64,000 nt of DNA from an uncultured Nitrososphaerales archaeon (GTDB lineage Archaea; Thermoproteota; Nitrososphaeria; Nitrososphaerales; Nitrososphaeraceae), in contig CAVOHZ010000010.1 in NCBI GenBank assembly GCA_963695855.1, positions 928,001 to 992,000 of the forward strand, given 5' to 3'. Positions 2,602 through 21,405 of this stretch are shown here, in pieces. The notes under the pieces were generated by a model. That model was not told the DNA's origin. It made no database searches and was given only the letters and a program-made list of their open reading frames with translations. The first letter of the stretch is position 1. Every line of letters starts with the position of its first letter. Position numbers and translations under genes: made by a program.

Positions 2602-2934
2602 AGTAAAGGTAATTAGACAACAAAAAGACAATGACCTCTGAGAATAGGAACGTCATATATAGCGGAGGCTATTGTTGACAATGCTTAATAGATAGAAAGA
2701 CATAACAAAATAAGGCTGAACAGGATACAAAAGATAACCAGCATACATGTAGATTTTCATGGATGTTAAGTTAAGGAAAATTTATGAAATAAATTGAAAA
2801 ATTCTTTTGAAATTGAGCACAGAACATACCTATTACTTTATCCTTAAGTTAACAGGGCCCTATAAACCCGACATTTTTTTCTTTTTTTCTATAATTTATA
2901 AATCTATTACTCTAGCGATATTCTTTTAGTGTTA

Positions 2935-2967
2935 TTGAACTCAAGAGACTGTTCAACTCCCGACGGG
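2935..2967 (+). repeat. att-like site A: hairpin plus tRNA T-loop/3' fragment
   Basis: TTGAAC-N10-GTTCAA then CTCCCGACGGG; GTTCAACTCCCGACGGG fits a tRNA T-loop, T-stem and start of the acceptor strand. Confidence 0.6.
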
Positions 2968-3057
2968 TATGTTATAAATATAATTCATTTCACTTTTATA
3001 CGATTTTGTAATATTGATATATCAATAATTAAATTTGATATACGATAATAACATATC

Positions 3058-3468
3058 ATGAAATTTACAAAAATTATTGAAACCAGTATATATTCTTCCA
3101 ATCTAAAACAAATGAAGGATTTTTATATCGATATTTTGGGATTGGATCTTGTTTCAGAAGAAAAAGACAGACATGTATTTTTAAAAGCAGGAAAAAGCAT
3201 GCTTTTAATTTTCAATCCTAACAATACATTAAATAAAATCAATGATATTTTTCCGTCTCATGGGGCATTTAGTCCTCCTTCTATAATACATTTTGCCTTT
3301 GAAATAAAAAGAGAAGATTATGAAAAATGGAAGTCTCTTTTAAAAGAAAATAAAATCAGTATTGAAAAAGAGAAGAAATTTGGGAAGAGCAAATCAATAT
3401 ATTTTCGCGATCCAGTTGGCAATATGGTTGAATTCATAACCTCTAATGCTTGGCCAGTGGATGATTAA
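3058..3468 (+). CDS. VOC/glyoxalase family protein
   Basis: FYIDILGL, HFAF, SIYFRDPVGNMVE motifs. Confidence 0.9.
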   Translation: MKFTKIIETSIYSSNLKQMKDFYIDILGLDLVSEEKDRHVFLKAGKSMLLIFNPNNTLNKINDIFPSHGAFSPPSIIHFAFEIKREDYEKWKSLLKENKISIEKEKKFGKSKSIYFRDPVGNMVEFITSNAWPVDD

Positions 3469-3656
3469 TAATCTATTTATTTTTATTTTATACTTATTGG
3501 CATGGAGCTTTGGTTTTTCATCAGAAAAGATTTTGGAACTGGTGAGAGGTTTTTTGGACAAGATTCTTTCAACAAGATAACAAAAGTTAAGTATTGACGT
3601 TTGTTGAAATCTAATTTTAAAAATTGGTCATATCTTCTATTATGACAGGTTACATT

Positions 3657-3685
3657 ATAGAGGCAAAAATGCCTCTCAACCCGAC
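3657..3685 (+). repeat. att-like site B (family 1)
   Basis: ATAGAGGCAAAAATGCCTCTCAACCCGAC, 28/29 identical to 5390-5418. Confidence 0.75.
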
Positions 3686-3855
3686 TCCCCCATATAGAAA
3701 TTGAGAAGTAAAAACGTTAATTCATTCTGATATGTTACTAATTGGTGAAGAAATAAAATCTGATTTTATACAGAAACTGGTAATACCACATTCAATTATT
3801 TCAAAGAAAGGAGAAAATGGAATAATTATGACCTGCCCTCAAAAAATGATAGGTA

Positions 3856-5154
3856 TTATTTGTGGATATATAAGTTCAATACAGCCTTTTCATTATCCCC
3901 GTTTATATTGTCTATAATAAGTTTAGGATTATTAGAAATATCTTCAGGGAATGAATATTGAAATGCAAATGTACCAAAAGAAGATTTTTGATTTTCTGTA
4001 TAAATTATCTTATTTTTATCCTCTACTACAAAATCAAAACTAGAATGTCTTACCAAATCTCCTATTTTAGGATCTTGTAAATTCATAATAAAATTAATAG
4101 GAGTTGATGGAGTTATTAAGGAAGGATTCCAAGAAATTTGAACTAAAAATTTTTCGTTAGATGTTAAAATATCTAAGGGAAATTGTGGTTTCTCTACGGT
4201 ATATAATTTAAATGAAGTAGGAATTTGGTTATTAGTAATATCAATATCTTGGGAGATTTGTCGAGATAATTGATCCAATTGATCTTTATTTAGAACTAAA
4301 TGAATAATGCGTGAATTTAGATCTGAATAGTCATCTATGATCAGGGATCTTGTTGGAAGATTCTTTTCAAATATCAAACCGCCATAACTATTAGTATTAG
4401 AAATGTCAAGTAGTTTTGGTATTACAAATTCAATGTGCAAGTATTCCATTTGTTGTATGTATATCGGGTTCCAATTGAATGGCATTTCAAATGCTAATGT
4501 ATTATTTTCCTTAACATAGTTAATATTTCTTAAAGAATCATAATAACTTTTAATTATACCATTGTTTTTTTCTTCAGTGGTGTCTTGTATGTTGAAGTAA
4601 TGATCTTCACCTATACTTATGAATAAGTCAACTACTATATCATTTTCTAATGCTAATCCTCCACTTGGTTTTTTAAAAGTAATAGATAGATGATATAAAC
4701 CACCCTGTGAGAGAATTTTACTTGTTATTTCAAATCTATCATTTTGTTTGATATTTTGTATACAATCTATAGAATTTAATTGGATACCATTCTTAGAAAT
4801 AATAGCCTCAGTTATGTTTATTGCAATAAGTTTAGAATTAAAAAGACCAGCGCTAGATTTGATACATAGATTTAAAAATAATTCTTTATCTGAGAAAATT
4901 TTTATATCATAATCCAAATCAGAGATTGTTTGATTAGTCAACTGGTCATAAATCCTTAATAAAAATTTCGGATCAGTATAATCAATAGAGTTATTAACAT
5001 ATGCAGGCTCTAATTTTGCTTCTACTACAATTTTTTTACCAGGCACATCAACTGGATTGGAAATATCTGTACTAAGACCATGTCCATTAACTTGGATATA
5101 GGAAATTTTAAAGAGGATTAAGAATATGAATATAAAAATACCAATAGAATTCAT
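3856..5154 (-). CDS. Exported thaumarchaeal-type conserved protein
   Basis: Signal peptide ending in NGHG; GGLYHLSI, SYYD, FEMPFNW motifs resembling exported Nitrososphaerota proteins. Confidence 0.65.
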   Translation of the reverse strand: MNSIGIFIFIFLILFKISYIQVNGHGLSTDISNPVDVPGKKIVVEAKLEPAYVNNSIDYTDPKFLLRIYDQLTNQTISDLDYDIKIFSDKELFLNLCIKSSAGLFNSKLIAINITEAIISKNGIQLNSIDCIQNIKQNDRFEITSKILSQGGLYHLSITFKKPSGGLALENDIVVDLFISIGEDHYFNIQDTTEEKNNGIIKSYYDSLRNINYVKENNTLAFEMPFNWNPIYIQQMEYLHIEFVIPKLLDISNTNSYGGLIFEKNLPTRSLIIDDYSDLNSRIIHLVLNKDQLDQLSRQISQDIDITNNQIPTSFKLYTVEKPQFPLDILTSNEKFLVQISWNPSLITPSTPINFIMNLQDPKIGDLVRHSSFDFVVEDKNKIIYTENQKSSFGTFAFQYSFPEDISNNPKLIIDNINGDNEKAVLNLYIHK

Positions 5155-5389
5155 TTTTAAATAATGAATAAGATAAAAACAACGATATTAATAAATTTCG
5201 AAAATAGCAAGTCTAGAATATGTATTTGTATATAAAAAGTTCTAAAATAAATAATATAAAAATGATATATTTACAATAACAAAAAAATCATCTATCTATA
5301 CGTAAGGAGACAAGTCTTTAAAATTTGTGGAATAAAATTTTTAATATTGTAATTTTTTTATTAATTATTCTTAAGAAATAAATAACAAA

Positions 5390-5426
5390 ATAGAGGCAAA
5401 AATGCCTCGCAACCCGACGGGCCCGT
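5390..5426 (+). repeat. att-like site C (family 1, intact tRNA 3' core)
   Basis: GAGGCA-AAAA-TGCCTC hairpin then CCCGACGGGCCCGT. Confidence 0.8.
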
Positions 5427-5722
5427 ACGTTTCTAGGGCCCAGCACCTAGGATTATATTAATAGAGTATTCCAATATTATCAAACTTTTAAAAACTAGGC
5501 TATAAGGAAACAAACTGTGAGACATTTGCTGAAGCATTAAAAAAGCAGTTTAAATACTTTATTGTTTTCATCTTGTTTTTATATGCTATCAATTAATTAC
5601 CATTGTTATCATTTACTTTTCACTCATCATCGAAAATATCATTTAAATTACCTAGATTATTCGATTTGGTACATTAACAAACAAAACAAAATCTTTTAAC
5701 AAGTTTATATTATTGATAAATA

Positions 5723-6019
5723 TTGGATAGAGAAAAAATTCTTAGAAACTTATTTAATAAAGCCACTGAAGATACAATAGAAACTCTACCTTATACAATT
5801 CAAGTATTTCAGAACCCTTCATATGATCTAAAGAAAACAGTAACGAATGATTTGGATTTTCTTTTAGGGGCATTTTTTGGACAGGTAATTTTGTTTTATT
5901 CTGTTTATTGTTCCAACAAAGATATGAAGCCAACAATTGAAGAATCAAATCAATTTAATTATGAATTATTTTCGAAGGCAGAAGAATACAAAACTATTAT
6001 CAAAGAATTAATGGTATGA
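5723..6019 (+). CDS. Hypothetical protein
   Basis: 98-aa ORF, the best candidate gene between two att-like repeats. Confidence 0.6.
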   Translation: MDREKILRNLFNKATEDTIETLPYTIQVFQNPSYDLKKTVTNDLDFLLGAFFGQVILFYSVYCSNKDMKPTIEESNQFNYELFSKAEEYKTIIKELMV

Positions 6020-6136
6020 AAATACTTAAAAGAATCAACTCTAGGAAAACAATATGGTCAGGTTTTTTTAGACAACACAAAACATCGGAAATAGCCAAAA
6101 TCTAAAGAAATTACACTAATCTTTTAAAAATATGTA

Positions 6137-6228
6137 TTCAAAAGTAAATCATAAATGTTATCTCTTTACTACCATACATTAGACTCTAATTTTTGCACCG
6201 CTATCGGTGTTACTCCCGACGGGCCCGT
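6137..6228 (+). repeat. att-like site D (family 2, intact tRNA 3' core)
   Basis: ~90-bp unit ending GCACCG-CTAT-CGGTGT-TACTCCCGACGGGCCCGT; related copies near 14071, 14360/15525, 17683 and 21327. Confidence 0.85.
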
Positions 6229-6270
6229 GCTGATATAAGTGCTAAAATTATGTTCTTTACAATTTACTAT

Positions 6271-6822
6271 TTAGTATTTTTTTATTATATAAACTAAAGA
6301 ATTTCTATAACTATTTGAGATAGTATGGTATTCATTTACTTTCTTTGTCTTTACAAAACCATTTTTTTCCAAAACTCTTATAGAAGGTTTATTTTCTGGA
6401 AAAACATAAGCTGAAATCTCTTTCAATCCCAATACGTCAAATGCGTAGTTAACCACTAGTTCAATACATTCTGTTGCTATGCCTTTGCCATGATATTGTT
6501 GACCTATCCAGTAACCTATATTTGCTTTTTTATTAACATAATCAATATCTTTAATAGCTATAATTCCAACTAGTAGACGAACTGATTGAAATTTATTTTT
6601 ATAGTCTATAGCAAAAGTTATTGATTTATGTAGCCTAAAATCATCACAACTAGATTTAATAAATTTTAAAGCATCATCTATCTTATAAGGATATGGAACT
6701 TCATAAAGATATTTAGCTATATCATAACTCATAAGATTTACTATATTTGTAACATCATCCATCGAAGGTTCTCTTAAATTGACTAGCTTACCAGATAATT
6801 GTGGAAAAGATGAATTAGTCAT
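6271..6822 (-). CDS. GNAT N-acetyltransferase, RimJ/RimL type
   Basis: IGYWIGQQYHGKGIATE and NKPSIRVLEKNGF. Confidence 0.92.
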   Translation of the reverse strand: MTNSSFPQLSGKLVNLREPSMDDVTNIVNLMSYDIAKYLYEVPYPYKIDDALKFIKSSCDDFRLHKSITFAIDYKNKFQSVRLLVGIIAIKDIDYVNKKANIGYWIGQQYHGKGIATECIELVVNYAFDVLGLKEISAYVFPENKPSIRVLEKNGFVKTKKVNEYHTISNSYRNSLVYIIKKY

Positions 6823-6948
6823 CTGCTACTTGTTTTATTATACCACAAAATGCTATATTTAACTAACTTCTACCTTTAGCAAGATAGTATATAATTTTAA
6901 TATATGTTGTTAGAACTTTAAATTAAAATAAGAGCTGTATTTGGAAGT

Positions 6949-6982
6949 TAGATTAGTAACAAATTTGTTATTCAAAAGACCC
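6949..6982 (+). repeat. Palindromic repeat I1, with a copy at 14291
   Basis: TAGATTAGTAACAAATTTGTTATTCAAAA containing perfect palindrome TAACAAATTTGTTA. Confidence 0.7.
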
Positions 6983-7389
6983 TTACCATCTGATTTTGGC
7001 TGAATTCTTTTTGAGCGTCAGAATTCTGTAACTATTTGAGTACCTCTGTGACTTTTTTACCATCTTTTGTCCATGATGTTATCTCTTTTTTACCATCAGG
7101 ATATTCTGTAATTACTTGATTATCTTTTGTTGTGGTAATTTTTGTTTCTTCTCCTTTGGACCCGAAAAGTATTGTTTCAGTTGTACCATCAGGAAGTATT
7201 TTTTCAATTTTGTTATCTGTTTTCGTAATTTTACCTGCTGTTATTCCTGAAATTTTATACTCTGTGACACTTAATCCTGGTTTCTCATATTTGCTTTCCA
7301 CAAGGCCGGAAGGATTTACAATATATTCTTTTTTTGTATCTCCCTGTTTTATTTGGTAAACCTTTGTACCATCTGTTTCTTTGTAACTA

Positions 7390-8524
7390 TACCAGTTATC
7401 ATAAGTATGCTGACAATATTTTACTATCTTGTATTATCTTTTAGATCAGAATAGCTATTAGCTGATACTATAAACATGATATCTTATTGACTAGTACAAT
7501 ATCTAAAGCAAGATTTGAAAAACTATACAGATCTGAACATGATACTAATGTAAAGGAAAGAATGCTAATTGTGTTGAACGTAGTATATGATAAACAGATT
7601 CCTGCACAGGTAGCAAGAGATCTTCATAGAAGCAGAACATGGGCTTCTGACTGGTTAAAGAGGTACAGGAAAGAAGGTATAGAAGGATTAAAAAACAGGA
7701 CAAAGAGTGGCAGACCACCAGATATACCAGAAGAGACTGTATATGAGATAAAAAACGAATTAGCATCCAGTAAACAAGGATGGACTACGAAACAGGTAGA
7801 AGATCTAATAGTAAGGAAGAGTGGTGGAATCAGATACCATTATACACATATTTACAGACTAATGCACAAGTGGGGATTCAAACAGAAGGTACCAAGAAAA
7901 GTGCATGTGAACACAGCATCAAAAGAAGAGAAAGAGGATTTTAAAAAAGAGCAAGAAAGGTACTGGATACTCTCCAGCAGCAGCATCAGCAAGAAGGATT
8001 TACAGTAGTATCTACAGATGAATCATTTTTCTTCTATGATTCACTTGTCAGGAAAGTATGGATAAACAAGGATGAAAGACCAGTTGTAAGGATTACGGGG
8101 TCACATCAGGAGTCAGTTCTATTTGGTACCACAAGTCTGGAAGGAAAACAGATGTTCAGGCAATATGACTGGTTTGATGAAAACACATTTTTAGATTATC
8201 TAAAACAGATACACAGAAAGTTTCCAAAATGTTATCTGTTTCTGGATAAAGCAAAACAGCACTACAGATCATATAAGGTACTACGATATTTTGATGAACA
8301 CAAACAGAATCTAATTCCAATATATCTTCCAACAGCATCTCCGGAATTTATGGTACTGGAAGAGATATGGCATATAGCCAAAAACGATCTGCTTGTACTA
8401 CAATACTATTCATCCTTTACAGATTTCAAAAATAAAATATCCTCGTATTTTAAGACAAAAAGATTCTGTCTTGATATGAGACACTATCTGTTGGGAGGTG
8501 TCAGCTAACATATGCTAGATGGTA
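7390..8524 (+). mobile_element. IS630 family element, copy 1
   Basis: Imperfect ~25-bp TIRs TACCAGTTATCATAAGTATGCTGAC / GTCAGCTAACATATGCTAGATGGTA; TA duplication at 7388-7389 and 8525-8526. Confidence 0.92.
7487..8508 (+). CDS. IS630 transposase (HTH ORF plus DDE ORF, probable -1 frameshift)
   Basis: HTH ORF 7487-8008; slippery TTTTAAAAAAG near 7940; second frame has STDES, LDKAKQH and LPTASPEFMVLEEIW. Confidence 0.88.
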
Positions 8525-8978
8525 TAGTTGTCGTCTTACCATCAGGATATTCTATGATTATATGATCATTATAACTAGAAAAGATATTTTCGGTCACCTT
8601 GAGTATTGTCCATTTGGCCAAATCTAATCTTCTATTATTCTACAAATTAAAACAATTATGAATTAAAATTTTTAATCAAATTTTTTAAGGTATTACTTAA
8701 CTCAGGATTAATGCTTAGAGAAATAATCAACTTATAGAGATACCAACTATAGTATCATAAATATGTTAAATCGCATAAAAATAGATGAATATTGTTCTAG
8801 TCAGAAAATCAGCAATAACTATATCTTAAACTATTCTTCAAAAGAAAAAAAATAATTCCCAGGTTCTAATTTTCACTTCCTAAAAGGACATAATAGTTAT
8901 AAATAGCAAAATTTTGTACCTGATAAATCATATTATCAATTTATTAATACTTATTAACAGTAGAAAATATTCCGGTTT

Positions 8979-9701
8979 ATGAGTGACTATCAATCTAAGA
9001 ATATATCAAATAAAAGTAATAAAGCAAAATTTAGTGTAAAACATAAATATTTAGTAGAAATTGTAGGCACTTTTATTCTAGTTTATGCCATTGCATCTGC
9101 TGCTACTGTTTATTCAGACAGTGGGCAATTAGGAGTAATTGGAATAGGATTGGTACATGCACTGGTGTTAACAGCAATAATATATGCTATTGGTTATCGT
9201 TCTGGTGCTCAAGTAAATCCTGCTGTTACAATCGCTTTATTAGTAGCAAAAAAAATTGGAAGAAAAGAAGCAGTATTATACATAATTTGTCAGCTAATTG
9301 GAGCCGTAATAGGAGCTGCTGTTGTTTACGCAATGTTTGGTTCTGCAATGTCGACAAGTGTAACGTTACCCTCAGACAATAACATATTGAGAGCGTTTGT
9401 ATTAGAAACAGTAATGACATTTACTTTGGTATATGTAGTTTTAGCTACTACTACTGCTAAAAATTTTAAAATTGCACCCTTAGCAGGAGTTGCAATAGGT
9501 TTTACGCTAGGATTTAATGTTATTTTGGGTGGATCTATCACCGGTGGTTCTCTTAATCCAGCTAGATCATTTGGACCTGCATTGATGACTGGGAATTTTG
9601 ATTATAATTGGCTTTACTGGATAGCTCCGATCATAGGAGGTCTGATCGCAGCAGGTGTGTATAAAGCATTACATCGTGATTCAGAACTTCCCTCAGAATA
9701 G
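8979..9701 (+). CDS. MIP family aquaporin
   Basis: Two NPA motifs (QVNPAVT, SLNPARSFGP) and hydrophobic helices. Confidence 0.95.
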   Translation: MSDYQSKNISNKSNKAKFSVKHKYLVEIVGTFILVYAIASAATVYSDSGQLGVIGIGLVHALVLTAIIYAIGYRSGAQVNPAVTIALLVAKKIGRKEAVLYIICQLIGAVIGAAVVYAMFGSAMSTSVTLPSDNNILRAFVLETVMTFTLVYVVLATTTAKNFKIAPLAGVAIGFTLGFNVILGGSITGGSLNPARSFGPALMTGNFDYNWLYWIAPIIGGLIAAGVYKALHRDSELPSE

Positions 9702-10303
9702 CAAAGGACCAAGGATAATACGCATTAAAACTCTCCGTCCTATCCAACAAAAATTTATCATAGAGCTAATCATCATGGAATGAAATTCGTGTATCTCTTT
9801 TTCATTTTAAATCAAAATAACGTATGAAAAAATCATAGAAAAAATCGTCATAATTTTGGCTCTGTTCATTTGATTCTTTTTTTAAGAATCATTCTATTGT
9901 GTATGTCAATAAACAAGATTAACCAATGCATTATATGTTGTAAATTGCAGTTGTATATTCTACAGGGAAAATAATCATCAAACCCTTCAGTTCTGTCCAA
10001 AGATGTCCTTTCGAGAAAATAAATGTAATTTTATTAGGATTATGAAGAGTATAATTTACCGTCTTTTCAAATTTAGTAGATTTATAAGAACCCTTTTTAT
10101 GGCCAAAGTATTTAATTTTGTAAAATTGTTGTTATCTTATTTGCCTTTCTAATTTGAAATTTATTAAATACCTTTTATAATGAAATTAGAGACAATACCG
10201 GACCTGCTAAAAAATACGTCATTATCTTAATTTTAAATATCTGATCTTAACAAATAAGTTTTGTATTAAATCTTTATTACAAAATCTAATATCGTATAGT
10301 TTA

Positions 10304-10864: not shown

Positions 10865-11215
10865 CTATCAAACCTTCTTGAATGAGGACTTTATGTAATT
10901 CATTTCTAATTTTTTTTAGCCTAAAACCATTTTTTATTATTGTTAAAAAAAAGGTATCGTTATAATCTGATTAATTTTATAACTATTAAAAAGTATTAAA
11001 TGGAAAATAAGTTCTAGCTCCTTCAAAAATTAAATTAGGTACCTAACAATTATAAATCTTGAAAACTCATGAGGAAGTATATTTCTACTTCTGTCTTCAA
11101 AATAAAAATTTTGCAAATATTGCAGAAATATAATAGCTTTAGAATTGAATATTTTTCCATCCAAATGGTCTTTATTTTAAATTATAAATAGTTTAGAAGA
11201 TGAAATAATATTATT

Positions 11216-11497: not shown

Positions 11498-11700
11498 TTA
11501 AGGTTTACTCAGATCATCTTTATAAGAATATAGTCAAAGATATTGATAAGAAAATCTTACTCTTGTTATACATAAAAATACGTTAGATATATCTTTGGAG
11601 AGTATTTTTATAGATCTTCTTAACTTTATAGACTACATCATTAGGTCTCAGCTTTTGCATTACTTCCTTTAAAATTGTAATATAGTTTGGCTTGGCTTGA

Positions 11701-12462
11701 TTAATTAAACTCCGTCTTAGAATCATCTTGATACTTTAGGTAAGTATCTATGATCTTGTTGATTTTATTTTGATCATCCTCAGGTCTTACCAATTTTGCG
11801 ATATTCAACACCTTTCTAATATCTTTTTCACCTTTCTCAAGTAACAATTGTGCAATCAATGCTGATAAAATCGAAGGCAGATAGAACTTTGATATAAGTA
11901 AAGTAACACAAATTTTAATGAATTCTCTATCAGAATATTCTGGCAACGTATAGATACTAAATCTTGATCTGAAAGGTTTGGTTAACCTTTCTATGCTATT
12001 TGATGTCGCAAATATCTTTGGATTATCCATTTTAAATTTGACTCTGGTCTCTTTTTTTGTTATATTTACTTCTCCAGTCTCTAAAAGATTATAGAAAACT
12101 GCTTGATCCTTTCTGTTTATTTTATCAATTTCATCAATGAGAATTATTCTTGCATTTCTATGATTTTCTAAATCATGTATAATTCCTGGTCCACTACTGT
12201 TAGCAGCATCATAATATATACAATCATTCACCTTTTCATGTATGCATTCTAATAAGAGGGATTTTGCCGTAGCTGGAGGTCCTACAAGTAAGATGTTTAC
12301 ATTATGTTCTGATACTATTCCTCTATACAGAATTTCCTTTAGATCATTATATGAATAAATTTCGGCGAAAAAATCTAAAGCCTTTTCTTCTAATCTGTAA
12401 ATATGTGGTTGCTGTTTTTGTTCATGTCTTGAATTATCTTTTCTGAAGGAATGAAATATCAA
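11701..12462 (-). CDS. AAA+ ATPase, RuvB-like fold
   Basis: Walker A GPPATAKS, Walker B ILIDEIDK, sensor ATSN, arginine finger RSRF. Confidence 0.85.
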   Translation of the reverse strand: MIFHSFRKDNSRHEQKQQPHIYRLEEKALDFFAEIYSYNDLKEILYRGIVSEHNVNILLVGPPATAKSLLLECIHEKVNDCIYYDAANSSGPGIIHDLENHRNARIILIDEIDKINRKDQAVFYNLLETGEVNITKKETRVKFKMDNPKIFATSNSIERLTKPFRSRFSIYTLPEYSDREFIKICVTLLISKFYLPSILSALIAQLLLEKGEKDIRKVLNIAKLVRPEDDQNKINKIIDTYLKYQDDSKTEFN

Positions 12463-12886
12463 TATACAAACTATATAGAAGTTTATTATTTAGATATAGT
12501 GTTTTCAATGCTATTTTATATCCATGGTTTCAGCTGAATTTGCACATTCTAATATTTTTCTATAGAAAGAATACAAAAGTTGTGAATTCATCCAGTTTGT
12601 TGTTTAAAAAAGAGATTTTCTTCAGGATAATCAATTCGATATTCCGTAATTCTATTAATATTATTATTTGTTGGGAAAAATTTAAAAAGAAAAAAATTTT
12701 ATGAGGAAGTACACTAGTAATTTTCTTGCCGGAAAAAATATTTTAAAAAATATATTTGTATCAGGTGTAAATTGCATGATGTATTAATTTGAAGTTAGAA
12801 CTGAAAGAATTATGTTATGTATTTTTCCAATAAGCTTATACCAAAAGTTTAATTTTTTAATAACTTTCAAGATCATAAAATAATAA

Positions 12887-13158
12887 ATGAGGGCTCTACA
12901 GGAGGAATTACAATACATTTTTCATAAAACATGATTTGATCCTTGAAGTATTATAGAGAAAGCCAGAAGTATCATGAAAGATTACCATCCGGGTACCACG
13001 TAAATCGGACATGAGGTGCTTTACATAAGGCATGAGTGGGCTACTGGATAGCCAGAGATAAATTGGAACCTGATAAGGAGATTTATTATACAGAAGTAAT
13101 CCAAAAGTTGCAAAAAGAATTTGGGTTAGAACTCTTAGAGTTTGAATGTTTATCTTGA
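12887..13158 (+). pseudogene. Degraded paralog of 11216-11497
   Basis: YYRESQKYH...SGYHVNRT*GALHKA*VGYWIA...IQKLQKEFGL. Confidence 0.65.
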
Positions 13159-13205
13159 ATATAGATAGTGGGAGTTAAGTAAAAAAGCACTTAATATCAG
13201 GTTAT

Positions 13206-13478
13206 CTAATTTCTCATGATTTTGGTACATTCTTTATCTTCATCCATTACATGTAGATCAAGAATTATTGATATCACATTTTCAATATCACGAATACGGG
13301 ATTTAATATGCTGGAATTCATCTTTGATAGAATTTAGGTGATAGTTTTTTTGAAAAATAGAAGAAATAGCAATATTTTGGATTCGTTCTGATTCAGTATT
13401 CCCTGACAATTGCAGATCTTTATTGATAGTATCCAGAACATCTTTTGGAAGTGAAATTTTTAGGATCTTAGCCTCCAT
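13206..13478 (-). CDS. Probable ribbon-helix-helix (CopG-like) DNA-binding protein
   Basis: N-terminal strand KILKISLP followed by two helices and SERIQ. Confidence 0.5.
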   Translation of the reverse strand: MEAKILKISLPKDVLDTINKDLQLSGNTESERIQNIAISSIFQKNYHLNSIKDEFQHIKSRIRDIENVISIILDLHVMDEDKECTKIMRN

Positions 13479-13665
13479 TTTAATAAATTATTGCGTTTAA
13501 AGTTTTATTATTTTCAATACGATCTTTTTCCTATTTTTTTAAAAAAAATCATGTTGTTTGCTGAGCATAAGCTATGTAAATTATTTTTTTATTGATATTA
13601 TTGGAAATATTTCTAAAATTAATTATTAATATTTAATAGCATCTTCCTGTTATTGAATAATTGAG

Positions 13666-13932
13666 ATGAGTGACATTGATATTTGGCAAAAAGAGTTCTG
13701 GAATCGATTGAATCAACAAATGCAAGAAAATTTTAAAAAACAAATGGAACTTACACAAGAACAGGTAAAAAAACAAATGGAACTTACACAAGAACAGGTA
13801 AAAAAACAAATGGAATTTACACAAGAACAGATAAAAGAACAATTGGAATTTACAGGAGATCTGGTAAAAAAACAATTGAATATACAGAAGGACAGCCAAG
13901 AAGATCAGAAGAAGAAGCTAAAAGATCGATAA
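13666..13932 (+). CDS. Coiled-coil protein with 11-aa tandem repeats
   Basis: KKQMELTQEQV repeated about 4 times (33-bp unit). Confidence 0.6.
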   Translation: MSDIDIWQKEFWNRLNQQMQENFKKQMELTQEQVKKQMELTQEQVKKQMEFTQEQIKEQLEFTGDLVKKQLNIQKDSQEDQKKKLKDR

Positions 13933-14070
13933 AAGTGGCTATGAAAAATGGAGACTTTTCTTAATCAACATAATCCAACATTAGCAATGATAGAATTTGA
14001 ACAAGCAAGATTTTTAAGAAATTTCTTGAGAGAGTGAAATTTCCCTTTATTTTTATTAATTTAAAATAAT

Positions 14071-14161
14071 TAAAAAATAAATCTTTAATATTATTATCTT
14101 TATTACCATATATTAGACTCTTATTTCACACTGCTATCGGTGTTACTCCCTACTGGCCGGT
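14071..14161 (+). repeat. att-like site E (family 2)
   Basis: ATTAGACTCTTATTTCACACTGCTATCGGTGTTACTCCCTACTGGCCGGT, homologous to 6137-6228. Confidence 0.85.
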
Positions 14162-14290
14162 AATATATTTGGGTTTATATACAACTATTGATAATATAAT
14201 TTAAAAATTTAGTGACTTGGTCGTGAGTATAACTTAAAATTTCAGACTAACAAAAAGTTTGTGATTACAAATAATTGATATTAGTTTTTA

Positions 14291-14331
14291 TAGATTAGTA
14301 ACAAATTTGTAACTCAAAACTACCCGGCCCC
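14291..14331 (+). repeat. Palindromic repeat I2
   Basis: TAGATTAGTAACAAATTTGTAACTCAAAACTACCCGGCCCC, matching 6949-6982. Confidence 0.7.
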
Positions 14332-14393
14332 TAATCTTTTAAAAATAATAGTATAATAATTGAACAGTAGATTTTAAATATTATGCCTTTTTA

Positions 14394-15524
14394 TACCAAT
14401 TAGCATAAGTATACTGACTTTATTTTACTATTGTATCATACATTTTAGAGCAGAATAGCTATTAGCTACTATTATTATTAACATGATACATCTTATTGAT
14501 TACTACAGAAATATCAAAAACAAGATTTGAAAAACTATACAGATCTGAAAATGATGCTAATGTAAAGGAAAGAATGCTACTTGTTTTAAATGTAGTATAC
14601 GAGAAACAGATTCCCGCACAGGTAGCAAGAGATCTTCATAGAAGCAAGACATGGGCATCTGACTGGTTAAAGAGATACAGAGAAGAAGGAATAGAAGGAT
14701 TAAAAAACAGAACAAAGAGTGGAAGACATCCAGATCTATCAGAAGATACAATATATGAAATAATAAAGGAATTATCATCCAGCAAACAAGGTTGGACTAC
14801 AAAACAGGTAGAAGATCTGATTGTGAAAAAGAGTGGTGGAATAAGATACCATTACACCCACGTATACAGACTCATGCACAAGTGGGGATTCAAGCAGAAG
14901 GTACCAAGAAAGTTACATGTTAATACAGCATCAAAAGAAGAGAAAGAAAATTTTAAAAAACAGCCAGAACGATTCTGGATACTCTCCACGACGAAGGATT
15001 CACGGTAGTATCTACAGATGAATCATTTTTCTTCTATGATTCACTCGTCAGGAAAGTATGGATAAGCAAGTATGAAAGACCAGTTGTAAGGATTACAGGG
15101 TCCCATCAGGAATCTGTCTTATTTGGTGCCACAAGCCTTGAAGGAAAACAGTTATTCAGACAGTACTACTGGTTTGATGAAAATACCTGTTTAGATTACC
15201 TAAAACAGATACACAGAAAATTTCCAAAATGTTACTTGTTCCTAGATAAGGCAAAACAACATTACAGATCGAAAAAGGTACTGAAATATTTTGCTGACAA
15301 TGGAGATAGTTTGATTCCAGTTTATCTTCCAACAGCATCTCCAGAGTTTATGGTACTGGAAGAGATATGGCATATAGCCAAAAACGATCTGCTTGTTCTA
15401 CAATATTATTTGTCATTTACTGATTTTAAAAATAAAATATCATTATATTTTAGAACAAAAAGATTTCATCTTGATATGAGAAACTATCTGGTTGATGGTG
15501 TCAGCTAACATATGCTAAGTGGTA
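14394..15524 (+). mobile_element. IS630 family element, copy 2
   Basis: TIRs TACCAATTAGCATAAGTATACTGAC / GTCAGCTAACATATGCTAAGTGGTA; TA duplication; close paralog of copy 1. Confidence 0.92.
14496..15508 (+). CDS. IS630 transposase (two frames)
   Basis: HTH ORF 14496-15008 plus DDE frame ending at 15508; slippery TTTTAAAAAA near 14950. Confidence 0.85.
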
Positions 15525-15589
15525 TACTATAACACAATATTAAATTCTTATTTTTGCACTGCTATCGGTATTACTCCCAACGAATCAGT
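15525..15589 (+). repeat. att-like site F (family 2; 5' part at ~14360-14393, split by IS630)
   Basis: TTTTTGCACTGCTATCGGTATTACTCCCAACGAATCAGT. Confidence 0.8.
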
Positions 15590-15658
15590 AGATTTCTCTG
15601 GTTCACCTATATTATTCAAAAATATTGAATAGGGTTTAATTTAGTTATCTCAATAATT

Positions 15659-16424
15659 CTAATCAAATAAGGCTTTTGTTCTTTTAAATAAATTTACTTT
15701 TTTATTTGTGTCCATACTATCCAATTCTTCTGCATGCTTACCAGATACCTCATCATTCCATGCTTGCACTATTTTTTCCAGTACTTTATTTAATTCTGTT
15801 AAATTGCTATTTTCGGTAGTAGGAAAAACATCAGTTTTATTTTTTGTCAATAAATATTCTTCCATCTTCATCTTCACAAAAGCTTGTACATCATCCATTA
15901 TAGTTCCCATTGGTGAACTTGGCAGACCATATTCATTGGTAAATTCTTTAAGGTTTTTCTTGGCTTGATTTTGTTTAGGATTATATTTAAAGATGTTTTC
16001 CATGCTTTCAATGCTTCCTCTCTTCTCATATCTTCCCAAAGAACACAAGCAAGATTTTGGTAAGAATCAGCTATCTCCATCTTCTTTGAATCCTTATCAT
16101 CATAAAGAGTAATGGATTTCTCATACATCTTAATCGCCTTTTTTCATTGTTTTTTATTACTATAAAAAATTCCAAGCATCAGGATTATTTGGATACAACG
16201 CAAGGATGTTATCAAGCCATTTTTTAGCCTGGGTTAATTTATTTTTTGCAATAAGAATCTCTACCATCATTATCATGGTTTCTGAATCACTGATACATCC
16301 TATCAAAATTTCCGATAAAACCTTTTTTTGCTTCACTATATTTTTTTTCTAAACATAACTTTGTTGCTAATGTTAACCCACAATTGCGTATTTAATCAGG
16401 TGTTGGAGCCTTAGCATCATCCAT
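15659..16424 (-). pseudogene. Fragmented TPR-repeat protein
   Basis: Fragments in several frames: AKKWLDNILALYPNNPDAW, AIKMYEKSI, EALKAWKTSL, YNPKQNQAKKNL; 5' boundary approximate. Confidence 0.65.
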
Positions 16425-16773
16425 GTTATCATAATAATTGAACTTTCTGTACTTTTAATATTTTATCCTATCAATTAATAATTTTTCATAACCATAAAAT
16501 ATTAAAATGGTTTTTAAAAATAAGCTTACAAATATATCATTACTATTCTCACCTATAACATGATGTACACTTTTAGTATCTAATATCAAATTCATGTGAA
16601 CCAATTTTATCTGACTGATTTTAATTTGAGTTTCTAATAATAAAAGCTAAATACAATGTAGTAAAACCTACCACATGAAAGATTCTACTCCAGTTAAAAG
16701 CTTCTAATGTATATCATAAATGACAAGAATTCCAGCGTGATTTATGAGAATTATCTTCTCTTAAATTATTATC

Positions 16774-17418
16774 TTATTTATATTCTTGAATCAAGAATGA
16801 TGGTTTCTCTGAATCTTGAATTACTGGTACGAATTCAATAGAATTAAGAATATTTTTTATATCTCCAATATGTTCCATGTAATATTCTTTAGAAGGAGAT
16901 TCAAATCTGAAATCATAGAATTTATCGAAATCCCTTACTAATACATCATAATTATAATTAAATCCGTTATTTGATAAAGATAGATATTCCATTACCCATG
17001 CAGAGTGATTCCCAGCTATTTTTATCTCTTCATCATCAATGTATGAGAATCCAGGAGCTTTGTTTAAGTTTTCATATTTCCATGCCATAAAATCAATAGA
17101 ATTAGAACATTTACATTCATCTTTTATTTTAGCCAAATCATAGGATCTTATGGAAAAATATGAATCTCTATTTTCATTATTCTCTTTTAAGTTGAACGCA
17201 ATAATACATCCAAATAAGTTACATGTATTACTATCAAATGATGATGGGCTTACTTTTTCCCAAGGATTGGGGTATTGTAATTTAATTCCAAGAAACGGGT
17301 TATAATAATCATTAGTTGTTGAATTTGATTGTGCAAATGAGGGTGGTATAATTGATAATATTGACGATAAAACAATAACAACAACAAAAAGAAATAAAAA
17401 ATATTTCATAGTGTTCAT
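16774..17418 (-). CDS. Exported PsbP-like domain protein
   Basis: Signal peptide, YYNPFLGIKLQYPNPW, C-terminal IKNILNSIEF. Confidence 0.7.
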   Translation of the reverse strand: MNTMKYFLFLFVVVIVLSSILSIIPPSFAQSNSTTNDYYNPFLGIKLQYPNPWEKVSPSSFDSNTCNLFGCIIAFNLKENNENRDSYFSIRSYDLAKIKDECKCSNSIDFMAWKYENLNKAPGFSYIDDEEIKIAGNHSAWVMEYLSLSNNGFNYNYDVLVRDFDKFYDFRFESPSKEYYMEHIGDIKNILNSIEFVPVIQDSEKPSFLIQEYK

Positions 17419-17682
17419 ACCTTATTGCTTCTATTATATTTCTTTCTAACATGAAAATTCTATCATCGCTATAGAAAATAAATTTGATGGAATTAAGATA
17501 ATAAAATTTGGATAGGGGTATAATAAAAATACATTATATAATAGGACCCCAATCTGAGTCTATTAATTGATCTGACAGATGATATTAATATTGTGTGTAT
17601 ATATGCAAGAGACAGCATTGATTGTTACTTATCATTTACTATTACTTCACAAATAAATTAAGTTATAAGGGCTTATTAATAA

Positions 17683-17763
17683 TTCAAATCTAAAATCTTA
17701 AATATAATCCATATTGCTATAACATTGGGTCCTAATTTTTCCACCGCTATCGGTATTATTCTC
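17683..17763 (+). repeat. att-like site G (family 2, tRNA core lost)
   Basis: CATTGGGTCCTAATTTTTCCACCGCTATCGGTATTATTCTC. Confidence 0.7.
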
Positions 17764-17809
17764 TATATTCATTATGGTAGAAGATTTTGTTTGTATTTAT
17801 CTAATTTTC

Positions 17810-18822
17810 TGGTTTGTTGCATAACTCGTTTAACCAATCGTTCTCATTATTATATAATTGATAATTATGTAACAGTTATACTTTGAAACCAGTTATACAA
17901 CGATGCTTTCAACATTATCTCTCTTATCATGTTCTCTAACCTGATAGCAGTAACATATTCACCAAACATTCTCTTCATAGAGGAAAAAACAGATTCTACC
18001 ATCCATCTTTGTCCATAGCGTACACTATCTTTCCATTCTTGCAAATCATTCTTCTGCATTTTCACCATCTTGTTTCTAAGGTAATGATTGGTCTTGTTTC
18101 TGCATCTAGAATTCTTTCTTACCTTTATTGCTGGTTGTATGCCTTTAAATGATAGAAACTGAAAGATCTTGTTGCTATCATAGGAACCATCCATGATAGC
18201 AGTATCTATTACCTTATTCTGTTTTATTGCTATATAATCAACCAATTTTGGAAGTACTTTTACATCATGTACTTCTTCACTAGTAACATCTAATGATAGA
18301 ATTCTCTTCTTTTTTATATCGACTGCTAAATGTATCTTTAGATATCCTCTTTTTACATTCCACTTGTGTCTAATCCATTCACCCCTCTTAGATACCTTTA
18401 TACCGGTAGAATCAATTGCAATAACAAAATTATCATCATGCAAGTTAGATTTGGTTATATCATCAGAAATCTTGATATCCAGTCTATTTATTCTTCTGCT
18501 AATGTTACTATAATCTGGAATTGATGGCAAAGTGTTTGAAGCATGTTCTCTTACTACTCCTTCAGTTTGTCTGTAGGGTAAGTGAAAGTATGCTCTCATG
18601 TATCCCAATAACTTGACAAATGAATCTGGATATACGAATTTCCTACCTTCCTTTTCCTTATTCATCTTCTCTAGTTCAGTATTCCAGTTATCTATAACAT
18701 CAAAATCCAGTAATACCTCACCACGTTTAACAAGAGATTCGTTGTAATTTCTCCAGTTCACATAATATGACTAGAATTGGTTAGCTAAATGTGTTGAGAA
18801 GAACAAGTTGTGCAACAAGGCA
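17810..18822 (-). mobile_element. IS5 family element, IS903-like
   Basis: TIRs TGGTTTGTTGCATAAC / GTTGTGCAACAAGGCA flanked by direct repeat TAATTTTC (17802-17809 and 18823-18830). Confidence 0.9.
17865..18761 (-). CDS. IS5 family transposase
   Basis: MNWRNYNESLVKRG, IDSTG, DGSYD, YGQRWMVES. Confidence 0.95.
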   Translation of the reverse strand: MNWRNYNESLVKRGEVLLDFDVIDNWNTELEKMNKEKEGRKFVYPDSFVKLLGYMRAYFHLPYRQTEGVVREHASNTLPSIPDYSNISRRINRLDIKISDDITKSNLHDDNFVIAIDSTGIKVSKRGEWIRHKWNVKRGYLKIHLAVDIKKKRILSLDVTSEEVHDVKVLPKLVDYIAIKQNKVIDTAIMDGSYDSNKIFQFLSFKGIQPAIKVRKNSRCRNKTNHYLRNKMVKMQKNDLQEWKDSVRYGQRWMVESVFSSMKRMFGEYVTAIRLENMIREIMLKASLYNWFQSITVT

Positions 18823-19049
18823 TAATTTTCCATATTCTTGCCTTTCTTACTATTTAATATTATTGGAAAACCAAAAAGTAAAAATAGTAAACTAATCATT
18901 GGAACAAATATTCGAATGGAACTTTCTGTTATAGTTATAATTAACGGAATTGCCAACATGACAGCGCCTAACACCATAAAAATTATTCCTATTCTTCTCT
19001 CTTCCAATAAAATGCTTAATTTCACATGTTGTATAAAACAGTATTTCAT
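18823..19049 (-). CDS. Small two-TM membrane protein; native stop displaced by IS5
   Basis: Empty-site reconstruction ends KKGKNMEN*. Confidence 0.5.
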
Positions 19050-19393
19050 ATTTGATAGAAAAGAAAAACAATTGTATTGAAATTTATAGATGATTCGGTG
19101 CTGTAACTTAAGGAAAGAGCTATAGCTGTGAATGTTCTATTCTAACAATATATGTTGTTAAGATTTGTCAGAAATAGAACATGTACTTTTATTGTAATGT
19201 ATTCCCTTTATTGCTTTCAACCCATGCAAATCCTCAATAATAATTATTATAGCATTTCTCTAAAAAGCAAAAATATAGAACAATTTAGATAAACAAAAAA
19301 AACGATTTAGGAATTTAATACCCTAATGAATATAAAACTACCTAGTACTGGATTTGAAATTCGAAGATAGAGGATTCATTAGTACTTCCATAG

Positions 19394-20041
19394 TTATGGA
19401 CCTCTGTATTCTACTACTGAATAAAATGCGTTCTTTCCAGAGTGGTCAAAATTTAAACTTGGAGTAGTAATACGCATTATCTTTGTTTTTGCTGCTTCTG
19501 CAACTTTCCAAATAAATCCGTTTGGTAGTTGTACCTTTGTATCCTGTTCTTCCCCAGTTACAGGATTCTTAAAACTTTCTAAATGAACATCCATGATATT
19601 GGATACAGTGAAACTACTTCTCTTTCCATCTATCTTGATATTGATGTCTACAAATTGAGGTTCTAGAAAATATTTTATTGTCCCTGCAAAGAGAGCAAAA
19701 GGACCTTCTCCTTTAGCTTTACCCGAAAATATATCGACTAATGCACTTCTTATATTATTATATGGTGTATTTTTAGTAATGTAAAGCTGCATTGTACCAT
19801 TTCCTTCATGTATTGCCTTCGGCCAGGCATATGCACCAACTACATCTAAGCCATCTAATTTTACATCTCCATAATTTCCTTCTCTTATATGATACAGTAC
19901 TAAAGCTCTGCAAAAGCCTGAGGAAGGAAAACCATCAAAATTACATGGACAACCATAATCACAATTACATGTTTCAACATAATCGGCTTTTAAATGCCAA
20001 GTCGGAATCTGAGTGGTAGATGATGATAACGAATATTTCAT
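19394..20041 (-). CDS. DUF1326 domain protein
   Basis: ETCNCDYGCPC...GFC...YHIREGNYGDVKLDGL. Confidence 0.88.
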   Translation of the reverse strand: MKYSLSSSTTQIPTWHLKADYVETCNCDYGCPCNFDGFPSSGFCRALVLYHIREGNYGDVKLDGLDVVGAYAWPKAIHEGNGTMQLYITKNTPYNNIRSALVDIFSGKAKGEGPFALFAGTIKYFLEPQFVDINIKIDGKRSSFTVSNIMDVHLESFKNPVTGEEQDTKVQLPNGFIWKVAEAAKTKIMRITTPSLNFDHSGKNAFYSVVEYRGP

Positions 20042-20123
20042 ATCAATAACTAATTATTTATTTGTATAAAAGAATATCTTTATACAGTAAAATTAATTTG
20101 ATTACTACTAATCAAAAGGATTC

Positions 20124-20906
20124 TCAACAATGGATAATAGGTTCTAACTTTTGTCTTAATAAAATACCTGAATATGCAAAATCATTCTTCATTATAGCTT
20201 CAGTATACTTTGTAAATAGTGAATTGTCAATACATGAACCATCGATAGGATATACCATATTTGGTGATAAATCTTCAAGCCTTTTAGTTGTATTTCTCAC
20301 AGGTTTCTTACTGGCAAATATTCCAGCACATCTATAAAGATTAATCAGTAGTTCTGAAAGTTCTTCAGATAAAACAGGTTTATTCTTTCCTGGTTGGATA
20401 AATAAATCAGAAGTAAACAGTGACTTGGTATTCTGCTCAAATATCATCATACTATCCTAGTGATGAACATGTGGTGTCATAATGTATTTGAATTGCCTCT
20501 TACCAGTCTTTAGGATTTCAATTTCCCAAACTGCTATATGGTCTAAAGGAATGTTATACCAGCCCATCATTTTTAGCTTTGAACTTAAATCGCTGCATAC
20601 TAATTTTGCATAAGCAGATTCTAAAAATCCCATTCCACCCCGTTGGTCACTTTCAAAATTAAAAAAAGATATATATGCTAACTTTTGCAAAGGGATAACT
20701 TCTTATATTTTTTGTTCTAAATTTTTATACATTCCTATGGGACCTGTATGAAATAACATAGGTTTTTCATCATCAATCAAAAATTGATGAAACGTTATTC
20801 CAAATGTATTTGAGAATCCGGATATTCTATAGATTGCATCAGTAATTTCAGAAATGGTAACATCAACATCCTTATTATAATAATCAGTCTTGTTAATTTC
20901 TCTCAT
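20124..20906 (-). pseudogene. Fragmented FprA/ODP-type metallo-beta-lactamase-fold protein
   Basis: Three consecutive fragments: QFLIDDEKPMLFHTG, FESDQRGG...TPHVHH, LFTSDLFIQPG. Confidence 0.8.
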
Positions 20907-21326
20907 CTTTAGAATAGATTAACATAAGTAAATAATTTTCATGAAATTTGCTTGTAGGTAGATTAAATATATTGGATGACAAATATATCCAATAGTCGTA
21001 TGAATCTTCTCTTAGCAAAAAGATTCGATACCCCTTATTTTATTAAGTCCTTCTGTTCTAAATAGTTACCAAAAAACTAAATCTAATAAAATATCATTTT
21101 CATTATCAGGAATTCGTTGTCTATAAAAAGGAATTCGCCCTAAGATTTATTAAAAAAATCAGAAAATAAGATTAAAAAGAATATTATAAAAAACATTATA
21201 AAGAGGAAATAAAATAAATAGGACAAAAAAATGATTCGATATAGTAACTTTAACTACTGATCTATAATAAATTATATATTGACTTTTTCATGCATGTCTT
21301 TGTAATTAGAAAAGCCGTATTATCAT

Positions 21327-21405
21327 TTCTAATCATAATTCTTACATAATATCACTTTATTGTAACCTTAGACTCTTTAGCGCCGGCATCAGTGTTACTG
21401 GCGAC
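21327..21405 (+). repeat. att-like site H (family 2, most degenerate)
   Basis: CCTTAGACTCTTTAGCGCCGGCATCAGTGTTACTGGCGAC. Confidence 0.55.

Follow-up and report, generated by a model that had tools for sequence, protein, structure and literature searches.

The stretch of DNA analysed here (the window) comprises 64,000 nucleotides of contig C10 from an uncultured, ammonia-oxidising soil archaeon of the Nitrososphaerales, whose genome (G000) amounts to 3.55 Mb in 11 contigs with a GC content of about 31%. It carries most of an array of short repeat sites, every one of which consists of a conserved arm of 40-95 nt, followed in whole, in part or not at all by the last 13-21 nt of tRNA-Lys(UUU), here called the core. 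Arrays of this kind have rather likely grown by the accretion and shuffling, through site-specific recombination, of units that mostly lack an integrase. Each site is best read as the right-end arm (P arm) of an integrating unit, joined to the remains of a core derived from tRNA-Lys(UUU). This account builds on features computed directly, namely the identity of the core with the tRNA, the arm families, the clustering and co-orientation of the sites, the breakpoints at the junctions, the multi-copy units and the adjacency of an integrase. New would be the expansion, across a whole genus, of an integrase system of the tRNA-Lys type into arrays of small units tagged by arms; a literature search found no title or abstract describing such arrays or arms.

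The arm families were defined by nhmmer and blastn-short across the whole G000 genome, after the sequence had been read and a repeat finder run. The boundary between arm and core is termed the junction, and core positions are counted from the first C of CCCGAC. The main repeated part of the sites is the DNA to the left of the core, which falls into four arm families (F1-F4); same-family arms are 75-95% identical, and all four families end in ...TTAC-T or ...CAAC-T directly before CCCGAC. F1 (55 copies) has a TATA-like box and then ...GACTCTTATTTTTGCACCGCTATCGGTATTACT, with a short hairpin (CACCG-CTAT-CGGTG) placed 7 nt ahead of a junction ending TTAC/T. F2 (24 full copies among 37 hits) has the box AAAGCTAAATA and the hairpin GTAGTAGAACCCTACTAC, followed by ATGGAGGATTCTACT, while F3 (4 copies) is marked by the hairpin GAGGCAAAAATGCCTC and F4 is present in 2 copies, with a variant at window position 2958. 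The conserved TATA-like box of F1 and F2 lies about 22-25 nt upstream of a conserved segment, and F2 has an ATG at that distance. To the right of the core, flank type a leads into the integrase gene, type b is TAGTTTTCTAGGGYYC, type c leads into a GNAT gene and type d is CCAGCTTGC...GAACCCTA. The core is kept with at most one mismatch in 13 at 19 of the 86 sites of the genome; 16 sites have two or three mismatches, 17 retain CCCGAC only and 34 have none of it.

The sequence-only reading, a note made earlier from the letters of this stretch, had taken the core for a tRNA 3' end, and this holds. The core corresponds to the last 13-21 nt of the intron-containing tRNA-Lys(UUU) at C8:2734-2821(+), covering T-loop, T-stem, acceptor strand and discriminator, and this tRNA is the only one of 33 (Rfam tRNA model) that ends in ...TCTCGGGTTCAACTCCCGACGGGCCCG. 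Its 3' 16-mer has 16 further copies with at most one mismatch, where 27 of the 31 tRNAs tested have 0-3. In the window the exact 13-mer CCCGACGGGCCCG is found twice (5413-5425 and 6215-6227), where shuffled sequence is expected to give 0.01 copies and none of 100 shuffles reaches two. A permuted or split tRNA was considered and rejected, as neither the arms nor the b flank carry on as tRNA halves.

Across G000, 86 junctions were located (42 on the plus and 44 on the minus strand), most of them in about 12 clusters with a combined length of 189 kb (5.3% of the genome). Neighbouring pairs less than 10 kb apart number 63, compared with 18.0 +/- 3.3 at random placement (maximum 30 in 2000 trials), and their median spacing is 1733 bp. 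The sequence-only reading had named scattering in both orientations as the mark of a miniature inverted-repeat transposable element (MITE); both strands carry sites when the clusters are taken together, yet 57 of the 63 close neighbours are co-oriented (binomial P = 8e-12). On contig C8, a minus-strand array (250822-316655) encloses five plus-strand sites (297825-307233), and the right flanks of C8:297825(+) and C8:314414(-) form an inverted duplicate of 573 bp; this mixed-strand array points to an inversion or an inverted duplication between sites.

Homology around the junctions was compared over 3 kb on either side, oriented, for all pairs. In the majority of copy pairs within G000 only the repeat is shared (528 pairs, with 72 more that also share a short right flank). 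Homology reaches beyond the repeat on the right only in 27 pairs, on the left only in 24 (and in 2 more that also have the short right flank) and on both sides in a single pair (C1/C9), which is apparently one region assembled twice. The comparison with other species covered 63 junctions at 31 of their loci, chosen for an F1, F2 or tRNA match; other genomes are labelled G001, G006, G012, G014, G016, G017, G032 and G035, and C with a number denotes a contig. Here 21 pairs are homologous on the right only and 27 (plus 2) on the left only, so that the check on related genomes proposed earlier returned homology breaking at the junction in 50 one-sided pairs, with no two-sided pair. Left-only homology stops mostly from -2 to +8 nt of the start of CCCGAC, and in some pairs already within the arm, as much as about 150 nt before that point. 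Because the homology is one-sided, left arms and right flanks assort independently, and the junction is the point of exchange.

The intervals between junctions behave as units. Among 89 inter-junction units (57 in G000 and the remainder from loci of other genomes), 11 pairs share homology across more than 80% of each member, and several discrete units of 0.4-1.1 kb (403-1114 bp) reappear elsewhere, bounded by a junction at either end and next to unrelated neighbours. A unit of 429 bp is found at C8:22973-23402, C8:295725-296151(-) and C10:925586-926015, and a fourth copy, split by an IS5-like element, starts at window position 17761. Its copies are 91-93% identical from the left junction to the last base of their own F2 arm, while the F1 arms before the left junction are only about 80% alike and three unrelated sequences follow the right end. 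The GNAT unit has four paralogous copies, each of which starts at an F1 junction with unrelated left neighbours. The window unit at 15576-16689 is about 80% identical over its whole length to a unit of G032 and is conserved in G006 from window position 15636 rightwards, and its right neighbour past the junction differs in all three genomes. Discrete site-bounded units in differing orders, a feature of integrons, were thus found. In G000, 8 of the 57 units have no open reading frame (ORF) of at least 70 aa, 19 have one and the others have up to 13, in line with the earlier supposition that most units are too small to encode an integrase. The ORFs run in either direction relative to the array (80+/76-), also in the single-ORF units (9+/10-, n = 19).

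An alternative that we regard as unlikely, and that fares best among the rivals, is that only large integrase-bearing elements were integrated in tandem at tRNA-Lys, and that the small units are leftovers of random deletion, insertion sequences and rearrangement that were never mobile. The ordinary decay of large tandem islands had been named beforehand as a competing explanation, and it does describe part of the window, which is made of a decayed large element, represented by its right end at 11672-14147, and of insertion sequences. Genomes of the genus commonly contain integrase fragments and pseudogenes, the core is absent at 34 of the 86 sites, the arrays are dense in insertion sequences, and fresh integrations at flanking sites could swap the neighbours of a unit that had itself not moved. 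Against this stands the recurrence of the 403-1114 bp units in other arrays and species, with ends exactly at the junctions and unrelated neighbours, and therefore the small unit itself was copied or moved. Moreover, arms of about 70 nt at 86 places are not expected to survive random deletion, and 8 of the 57 units are nearly empty and have nevertheless kept both sites. Decay of large elements on its own would account for some of the window and leaves the exactly bounded small units in several copies unexplained.

Improbable to a greater degree is that units were shuffled through arms of 70-95 nt by ordinary homologous recombination or gene conversion, a reading that needs no dedicated recombinase and for which the numerous same-family arms, 75-95% identical, may be cited. 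Exchange of this sort predicts boundaries inside both arms; the 429-bp unit is bounded by junctions, with its left arm outside and its right arm inside, an asymmetry that fits site-specific exchange at the junction and not homologous exchange within the arms. In addition, the same right flanks are found after F1, F2, F3 and F4 arms and after the tRNA, which have in common only the core, 9-21 nt.

Slightly less credible again is the idea that the arms are a self-standing repeat among accessory genes (a MITE-like, small-RNA or promoter module) and that the tRNA-like tail is incidental. The TATA-like boxes in F1 and F2, the ATG in F2, the conservation of the arms across the genus and the 34 of 86 arms with no core would suit it. 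It is opposed by the clustering and co-orientation of the arms (57/63 close pairs) and by one-sided homology that stops at the junction in 103 of 104 informative pairs. No inverted-repeat partner of the arms is found among the repeats listed by the repeat finder, and an Rfam scan of window positions 1-24000 at E <= 5 gave four weak snoRNA/sRNA matches, none of them on any site. F1 and F2 sites fold no better than shuffled sequence on either strand (z -0.98 to +1.2), whereas the F3 site at window 5375..5445 contains two local hairpins (fold z-score -3.4), and a micro-ORF in F2 is not kept across species.

This micro-ORF, a leaderless frame of 18 codons (MEDSTPDQL...) over F2 and its commonest right flank, is coding-like within G000, yet many copies in other species stop after 10 codons, and it was rejected; the conserved features around it are DNA boxes of the form GAACCC(T/G)A. 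At F2 sites with a d flank (for example G000 C2:121181-121240 and C8:194324(-)), the ATG that opens a frame of 10-18 codons over the junction has a TATA-like box 22 nt upstream, three GAACCC(T/G)A boxes surround the core, and in four copies there is a winged-helix (HTH_45) gene of 87-89 aa at a distance of 230-390 nt downstream.

Least probable of all is single-strand transposition of the IS200/IS605 or IS91 kind, in which the arm, with its subterminal hairpin, would act as a right end and the tip TTAC would recreate the target for tandem insertion: IS608 inserts 3' of TTAC and the F1 hairpin stands 7 nt before the TTAC/T junction, but the genome has no Y1 transposase above cut-off (PF01797, best 22.4 bits against a cut-off of 23) and no TnpB-type domain (PF07282), with control genomes positive in both searches, the units have no conserved left end, and the core is a tRNA end adjoining an integrase. 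The sole Y1-like signal in G000 is at C8:562668-562832, within an open frame of 317 aa.

For accretion by site-specific recombination, a candidate enzyme is encoded at the tRNA-Lys(UUU) locus. The earlier note had called for a tyrosine integrase near the window; none is there, and one is found on C8, where the gene of a 448-aa tyrosine recombinase (C8:2892-4235) starts 70 nt downstream of tRNA-Lys(UUU). The protein is taken to be a recombinase because it has full-length homology (E 2e-40) to G000 paralogues that pass the Pfam threshold, and many source annotations of its homologues read 'integrase/recombinase XerD'. In NCBIfam at E <= 1 it gave weak XerA and XerC matches (20.6 and 14.6 bits against cut-offs of 220 and 335) and matched no integron-integrase model, and a PDB sequence search at E <= 1 returned nothing relevant. 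The structure model has a mean predicted local distance difference test score (pLDDT) of 63, with the catalytic part below 50. A paralogue with 80% identity (C8:290264-291544(-)) comes after an F1 arm, core and the same flank at C8:291625(-), inside another array. The arrangement of tRNA-Lys followed by the integrase is repeated in G016, and F1 arms are followed by integrase fragments in G014, G006 and G016.

Downstream of tRNA-Lys, C8 carries a 19-kb element with the integrase and a type I restriction-modification system, and then an array of 11 co-oriented sites (21799-43681), the last of which has a perfect core. The tRNA-anchored array with an integrase that had been proposed for the window therefore exists on C8, and it is the C8 array, not the window array, that is an island abutting an intact target tRNA. 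A classical parallel built on the same plan is an element of about 25 kb (from C10:1701666-1703206 to about C10:1677963), with tRNA-Val(UAC), an adjoining integrase and a far-end arm that has a ATTACTCTAGCGATA box and the tRNA 3' end. Extra 3'-end copies also exist for other tRNAs with an adjacent integrase (10 for Val-UAC and 8 for Arg-UCG), compared with 0-3 for nearly all other tRNAs. These extra copies, together with those of the box ATTACTCTAGCGATAT, make the Lys-type sites the most expanded member of a general class in G000.

The box ATTACTCTAGCGATAT has about 50 copies in G000 (at most 2 mismatches), each after an AT-rich stretch, for example at C10:1678012(-), 1755230(-), 1773106(-) and 756850(+) and at window 2906. 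It stands ahead of the F4 arm and of other tRNA fragments, such as that at the far end of the 25-kb tRNA-Val(UAC) element, and several boxes have the 3' end of another tRNA (Val-UAC and others) 30-45 nt later. The box looks like an arm motif common to several tRNA-targeting elements, or like a promoter. At C10:756850-756913 it precedes an isolated tRNA-like 3' fragment (...TCTCGGGTTCAAATCCCGACGGCCCCG) with no counterpart among the 33 detected tRNAs. Some of the Val-UAC and Arg-UCG end copies lie inside Lys-type arrays (C8:44169, 195471 and 260258).

The proposed mechanism would run as follows. A tyrosine integrase, presumably the 448-aa protein, would recombine a circular unit of arm and core with a chromosomal core, the enzyme being supplied by the integrase copy adjoining tRNA-Lys or by its 80%-identical paralogue within another array. 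Each insertion would copy the site in direct orientation, so that units stack head to tail. Any pair of sites could then recombine, with excision, duplication, reordering or, between inverted sites, flipping of units as the outcome; crossover between sites would be expected within ACTCCCGAC. Most units lack an integrase and would have to rely on the enzyme acting in trans, by which they may have been captured one by one. Many sites would later have decayed, with insertion sequences landing among them, and the system may still be active today. A more ambitious version, which we offer tentatively and with more doubt than assent, describes a cassette platform independent of attC and IntI, in which small integrase-less cassettes with tRNA-Lys-derived arms would be excised as circles and reinserted at any arm by a trans-acting integrase of the tRNA type, with genus-wide stockpiling and exchange of accessory genes over about 5% of the genome.

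The arms are confined to one genus in the genomes searched. F1 was found in 18 of 18 genomes of the genus, in none of 12 from other families of the order and in none of 5 from three sister genera, two of them complete; F2, searched within the genus, was found in 25 of 25. The integrase subfamily is present in 20 of the 25 genus genomes at E <= 1e-30, and a sister genus that has no arms carries integrase copies with 58-65% identity. Arrays recur as well, with 13 co-oriented sites in 40 kb in G012 and six on one 11.6-kb contig in G001. In G012 (C15:1-88) and G035 (C64:497-584) the tRNA-Lys(UUU) gene is at a contig end or no more than 0.5 kb from one, and in G014 (C88:3041-3128) and G017 the distance is within about 3 kb. 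Repeats at the core could explain these contig breaks. The G012 contig terminates exactly at the tRNA-Lys 3' end. Genomes of the genus are roughly double those of most of the order in size, at about 1.3-6.3 Mb, compared with about 0.7-2 Mb for most others sampled in the order and up to 4.6 Mb for a few.

Soil metagenome contigs from four runs of four studies, which represent strains other than that of G000, contain the window cassettes at 90-99% identity and break or branch at 5387, 6176, 6219 and 6228. The joints 2916>5415, 6219>14296 and 6040>13971 were each seen in one contig, with one side of 23-30 nt. A further joint, 6225>5430, goes back by 796 and was found in 2 of the 4 runs with sides of 30-34 nt and six unmatched letters; it places an F1 arm and core before the 98-aa unit. 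Excised circles had been suggested earlier as something to look for; these joints are compatible with them and do not decide for them.

Several observations weigh against accretion and shuffling by site-specific recombination. No tRNA-Lys, integrase or left-hand attL-type site flanks the window array, and two of its intervals are not cassettes: 14148-15576 is almost wholly an insertion sequence, and a large element has left its remnant at 11672-14147. The 448-aa integrase scores 20-22 bits, below the Pfam Phage_integrase threshold, it is linked to the sites by adjacency only, and the array of 13 co-oriented sites in G012 is in a genome with no close integrase homologue at E <= 1e-30. With the core kept at 19 of 86 sites and wholly lost at 34, most sites may be dead. 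Lastly, the metagenome joints, whose sides measure 23-34 nt and which come from other strains, are compatible with circles, with tandem copies or merely with other neighbours.

The window array spans C10:913428-949399 (36 kb) and has 14 sites, all on the plus strand; the region studied is its right-hand two thirds, the features of which are listed in the table.

Table. Features of the array region in the window, in window coordinates.
Feature	Position	Strand	Remarks
IS110-family insertion sequence	1318..2828	+	Pfam DEDD_Tnp_IS110 and Transposase_20; 87-99% identical copies elsewhere in the genome
Site 1	2880..2967	+	Junction 2958; F4-like arm, box ATTACTCTAGCGATAT, end TGTTCAACT; partial core CCCGACGGG at 2959-2967
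Cassette gene, glyoxalase/bleomycin-resistance fold	3058..3468	+	136 aa; Pfam PF00903, E 4e-11
Site 2	3652..3685	+	Junction 3679; F3 arm (hairpin GAGGCAAAAATGCCTC), CCCGAC only
Cassette gene, no Pfam family	3856..5154	-	432 aa; 69% identical paralogue at C10:653123-654363
Site 3	5375..5445	+	Junction 5412; F3 arm, full core 5413-5425, b-type right flank TACGTTTCTAGGGCCC
Cassette ORF, no family	5723..6019	+	98 aa
Site 4	6122..6227	+	Junction 6214; F1 arm and full core 6215-6227
GNAT acetyltransferase unit	6228..6872	-	Gene 6271-6822
IS630-like insertion sequence	7385..8529	+	Helix-turn-helix and DDE_3 domains; terminal inverted repeats
Right-end remnant of large integrase-type element	11672..14147	+	Collinear with C8:18312-21800; ends in F1 arm
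AAA/MCM-like ATPase fragment	11701-12462	-	Inside the large-element remnant
Site 5	14078..14200	+	Junction 14147; F1 arm, degenerate core CCCTACTGGCCGG at 14148-14160, degenerate a-type flank
Second IS630-like copy	14389..15527	+	Removes the 5' part of the next arm
Site 6	15528..15582	+	Junction 15575; F1 arm, 5' end truncated by insertion sequence, then CCCAACG
1.1-kb cassette	15576..16689	+	ORF 15659-16048 (-), 129 aa, no family; F2 arm 16618-16689 at the end, junction 16689
Cassette	16690..17760	+	214-aa ORF 16774-17418 (-), no family; F1 arm 17693-17760 at the end, junction 17760
Copy of multi-copy unit of about 430 bp	17761..19096	+	Split by IS5/IS4-like element 17806-18825; F2 arm replaced by MITE-like repeat
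MITE-like repeat, about 116 nt	19097-19212		More than 50 genome copies, 73-93% identity
Last site	21330..21399	+	Junction 21399; degenerate F1 arm, no core; nhmmer E 1.5e-5

The sequence-only reading had listed eight plus-strand sites, all of which exist, with the F2 site at 16689 missed. The exact 13-mer is present at only two of them (5413 and 6215); at 17761 and 21399 the core is wholly gone, and at the others it is partial or degenerate. Site 1 contains a stretch, GTTCAACTCCCGACGGG, identical to the tRNA-Lys 3' end. The lengths of the first intervals (721, 1733 and 802 bp) and their single genes (glyoxalase, 432-aa protein, 98-aa ORF and GNAT) were confirmed. The related pair at 6949 and 14291 does consist of two copies, with no wider family. 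The interval 14148-15576, almost wholly an IS630-like insertion sequence, was discounted as a cassette. At site 5 the a-type flank is the one that runs into the integrase gene at the tRNA locus. It had been said that neither a tRNA nor an integrase is visible here, and indeed ARAGORN found no tRNA in the window and no integrase was found in or near it. The array does not start in the window but reaches further left, with another five co-oriented sites at C10:913428-926015, at most 14.6 kb before window base 1. One supposition failed: the anchoring tRNA is not to the left of the window, tRNA-Lys being on C8. The nearest upstream tRNA on C10 is a tRNA-Val(GAC), 20 kb before the window; an island at this gene was rejected, its 3' end being unrelated and not duplicated.

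IS110, IS630-like and IS5-like copies and the MITE-like repeat interrupt the array. The genes in and around it comprise glyoxalase, GNAT acetyltransferase, a MIP channel, the AAA/MCM-like fragment, DUF1326 and several with no family. The IS110-family element is not part of the array system, though it lies directly left of the first site. A 54-nt piece of its left end (window 1333-1386) is found again, inverted and with 83% complementarity, at 21537-21590, directly right of the last site, and these end sequences bracketing the studied stretch may mark an old rearrangement. At 13690-13887, five tandem 33-nt repeats lie within overlapping 88-aa ORFs on both strands and give a repetitive heptad-like protein; they are also found in the paralogous copies at C8:21441 and C10:913082.

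To our knowledge, ammonia-oxidising archaea are poor in routes of gene exchange. If the proposed account is true, site-specific shuffling of small accessory units between species would explain part of the genome expansion of this genus, with units that include glyoxalase, GNAT acetyltransferase, aquaporin and restriction-modification genes and many unknowns. The arrays would then be an archaeal counterpart to integrons and tycheposons, and the conserved arms an easy marker for such arrays in metagenomes.

Among the known systems, partitioned integrases of the SSV type in Sulfolobus, as She et al. reportedly described in 2001, fix foreign genes between tRNA-derived direct repeats. The integrase here differs in that it is not split by integration, its gene starting 70 nt past the core. 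In Thaumarchaeota, integrated elements with tyrosine recombinases have been surveyed in tRNA genes, with a median att length of 17 bp and with tandem integration noted (Krupovic et al., 2019, PMC6563490). The accessible part of that survey deals with whole elements (proviruses, integrative and conjugative elements, cryptic elements) and holds no arrays of tens of small integrase-less units and no conserved arm family.

Integrons, including archaeal ones, are of the IntI/attC type, and the portion available of the preprint on them makes no mention of Thaumarchaeota or tRNA (Ghaly et al., 10.1101/2022.02.06.479319). As far as that portion goes, the present arrays are like integrons in being made of short units, often with a single gene, that end in a site and carry accessory cargo, and in including arrays with no integrase, comparable to clusters of attC sites lacking integron-integrases (CALINs). 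They are unlike integrons in that no IntI model was matched, the sites do not fold as attC palindromes, a tRNA 3' end serves as the core, and the genes run both ways (80+/76-) with no common promoter logic. The resemblance to attC had already been denied in the sequence-only reading, and an attC-type integron was rejected for the absence of an IntI match, of a folding signal in F1 and F2 and of a common gene orientation.

Tycheposons of Prochlorococcus, according to the accessible text of the preprint, are tyrosine-recombinase elements that enter tRNA 3' ends, where each later arrival displaces the earlier ones inward; accessory-gene islands build up as degenerate elements, pieces of integrase genes and partial tRNAs accumulate, and inversions occur as well (Hackl et al., 10.1101/2020.12.28.424599). 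Compared with that description, the host here is an archaeon, the sites number 86 per genome, the retained repeat is a genus-wide arm of 40-95 nt beyond the partial tRNA, units of 0.4-1.1 kb recur as discrete modules, and most arrays are away from the tRNA. In streptococci, cis-mobilizable elements (CIMEs) are said to be att-flanked units without recombination genes of their own that are stacked by accretion next to an integrase-bearing element, which can mobilise them, with few units per site and transfer that depends on conjugation. The structure of the present units fits such satellite units, and mobilisation by a helper integrase would be predicted; the host here is archaeal and no conjugation genes were seen. 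The closest concept is the growth of tycheposon islands, taken together with the CIME and accretion model, which stands nearer to these arrays than attC integrons do.

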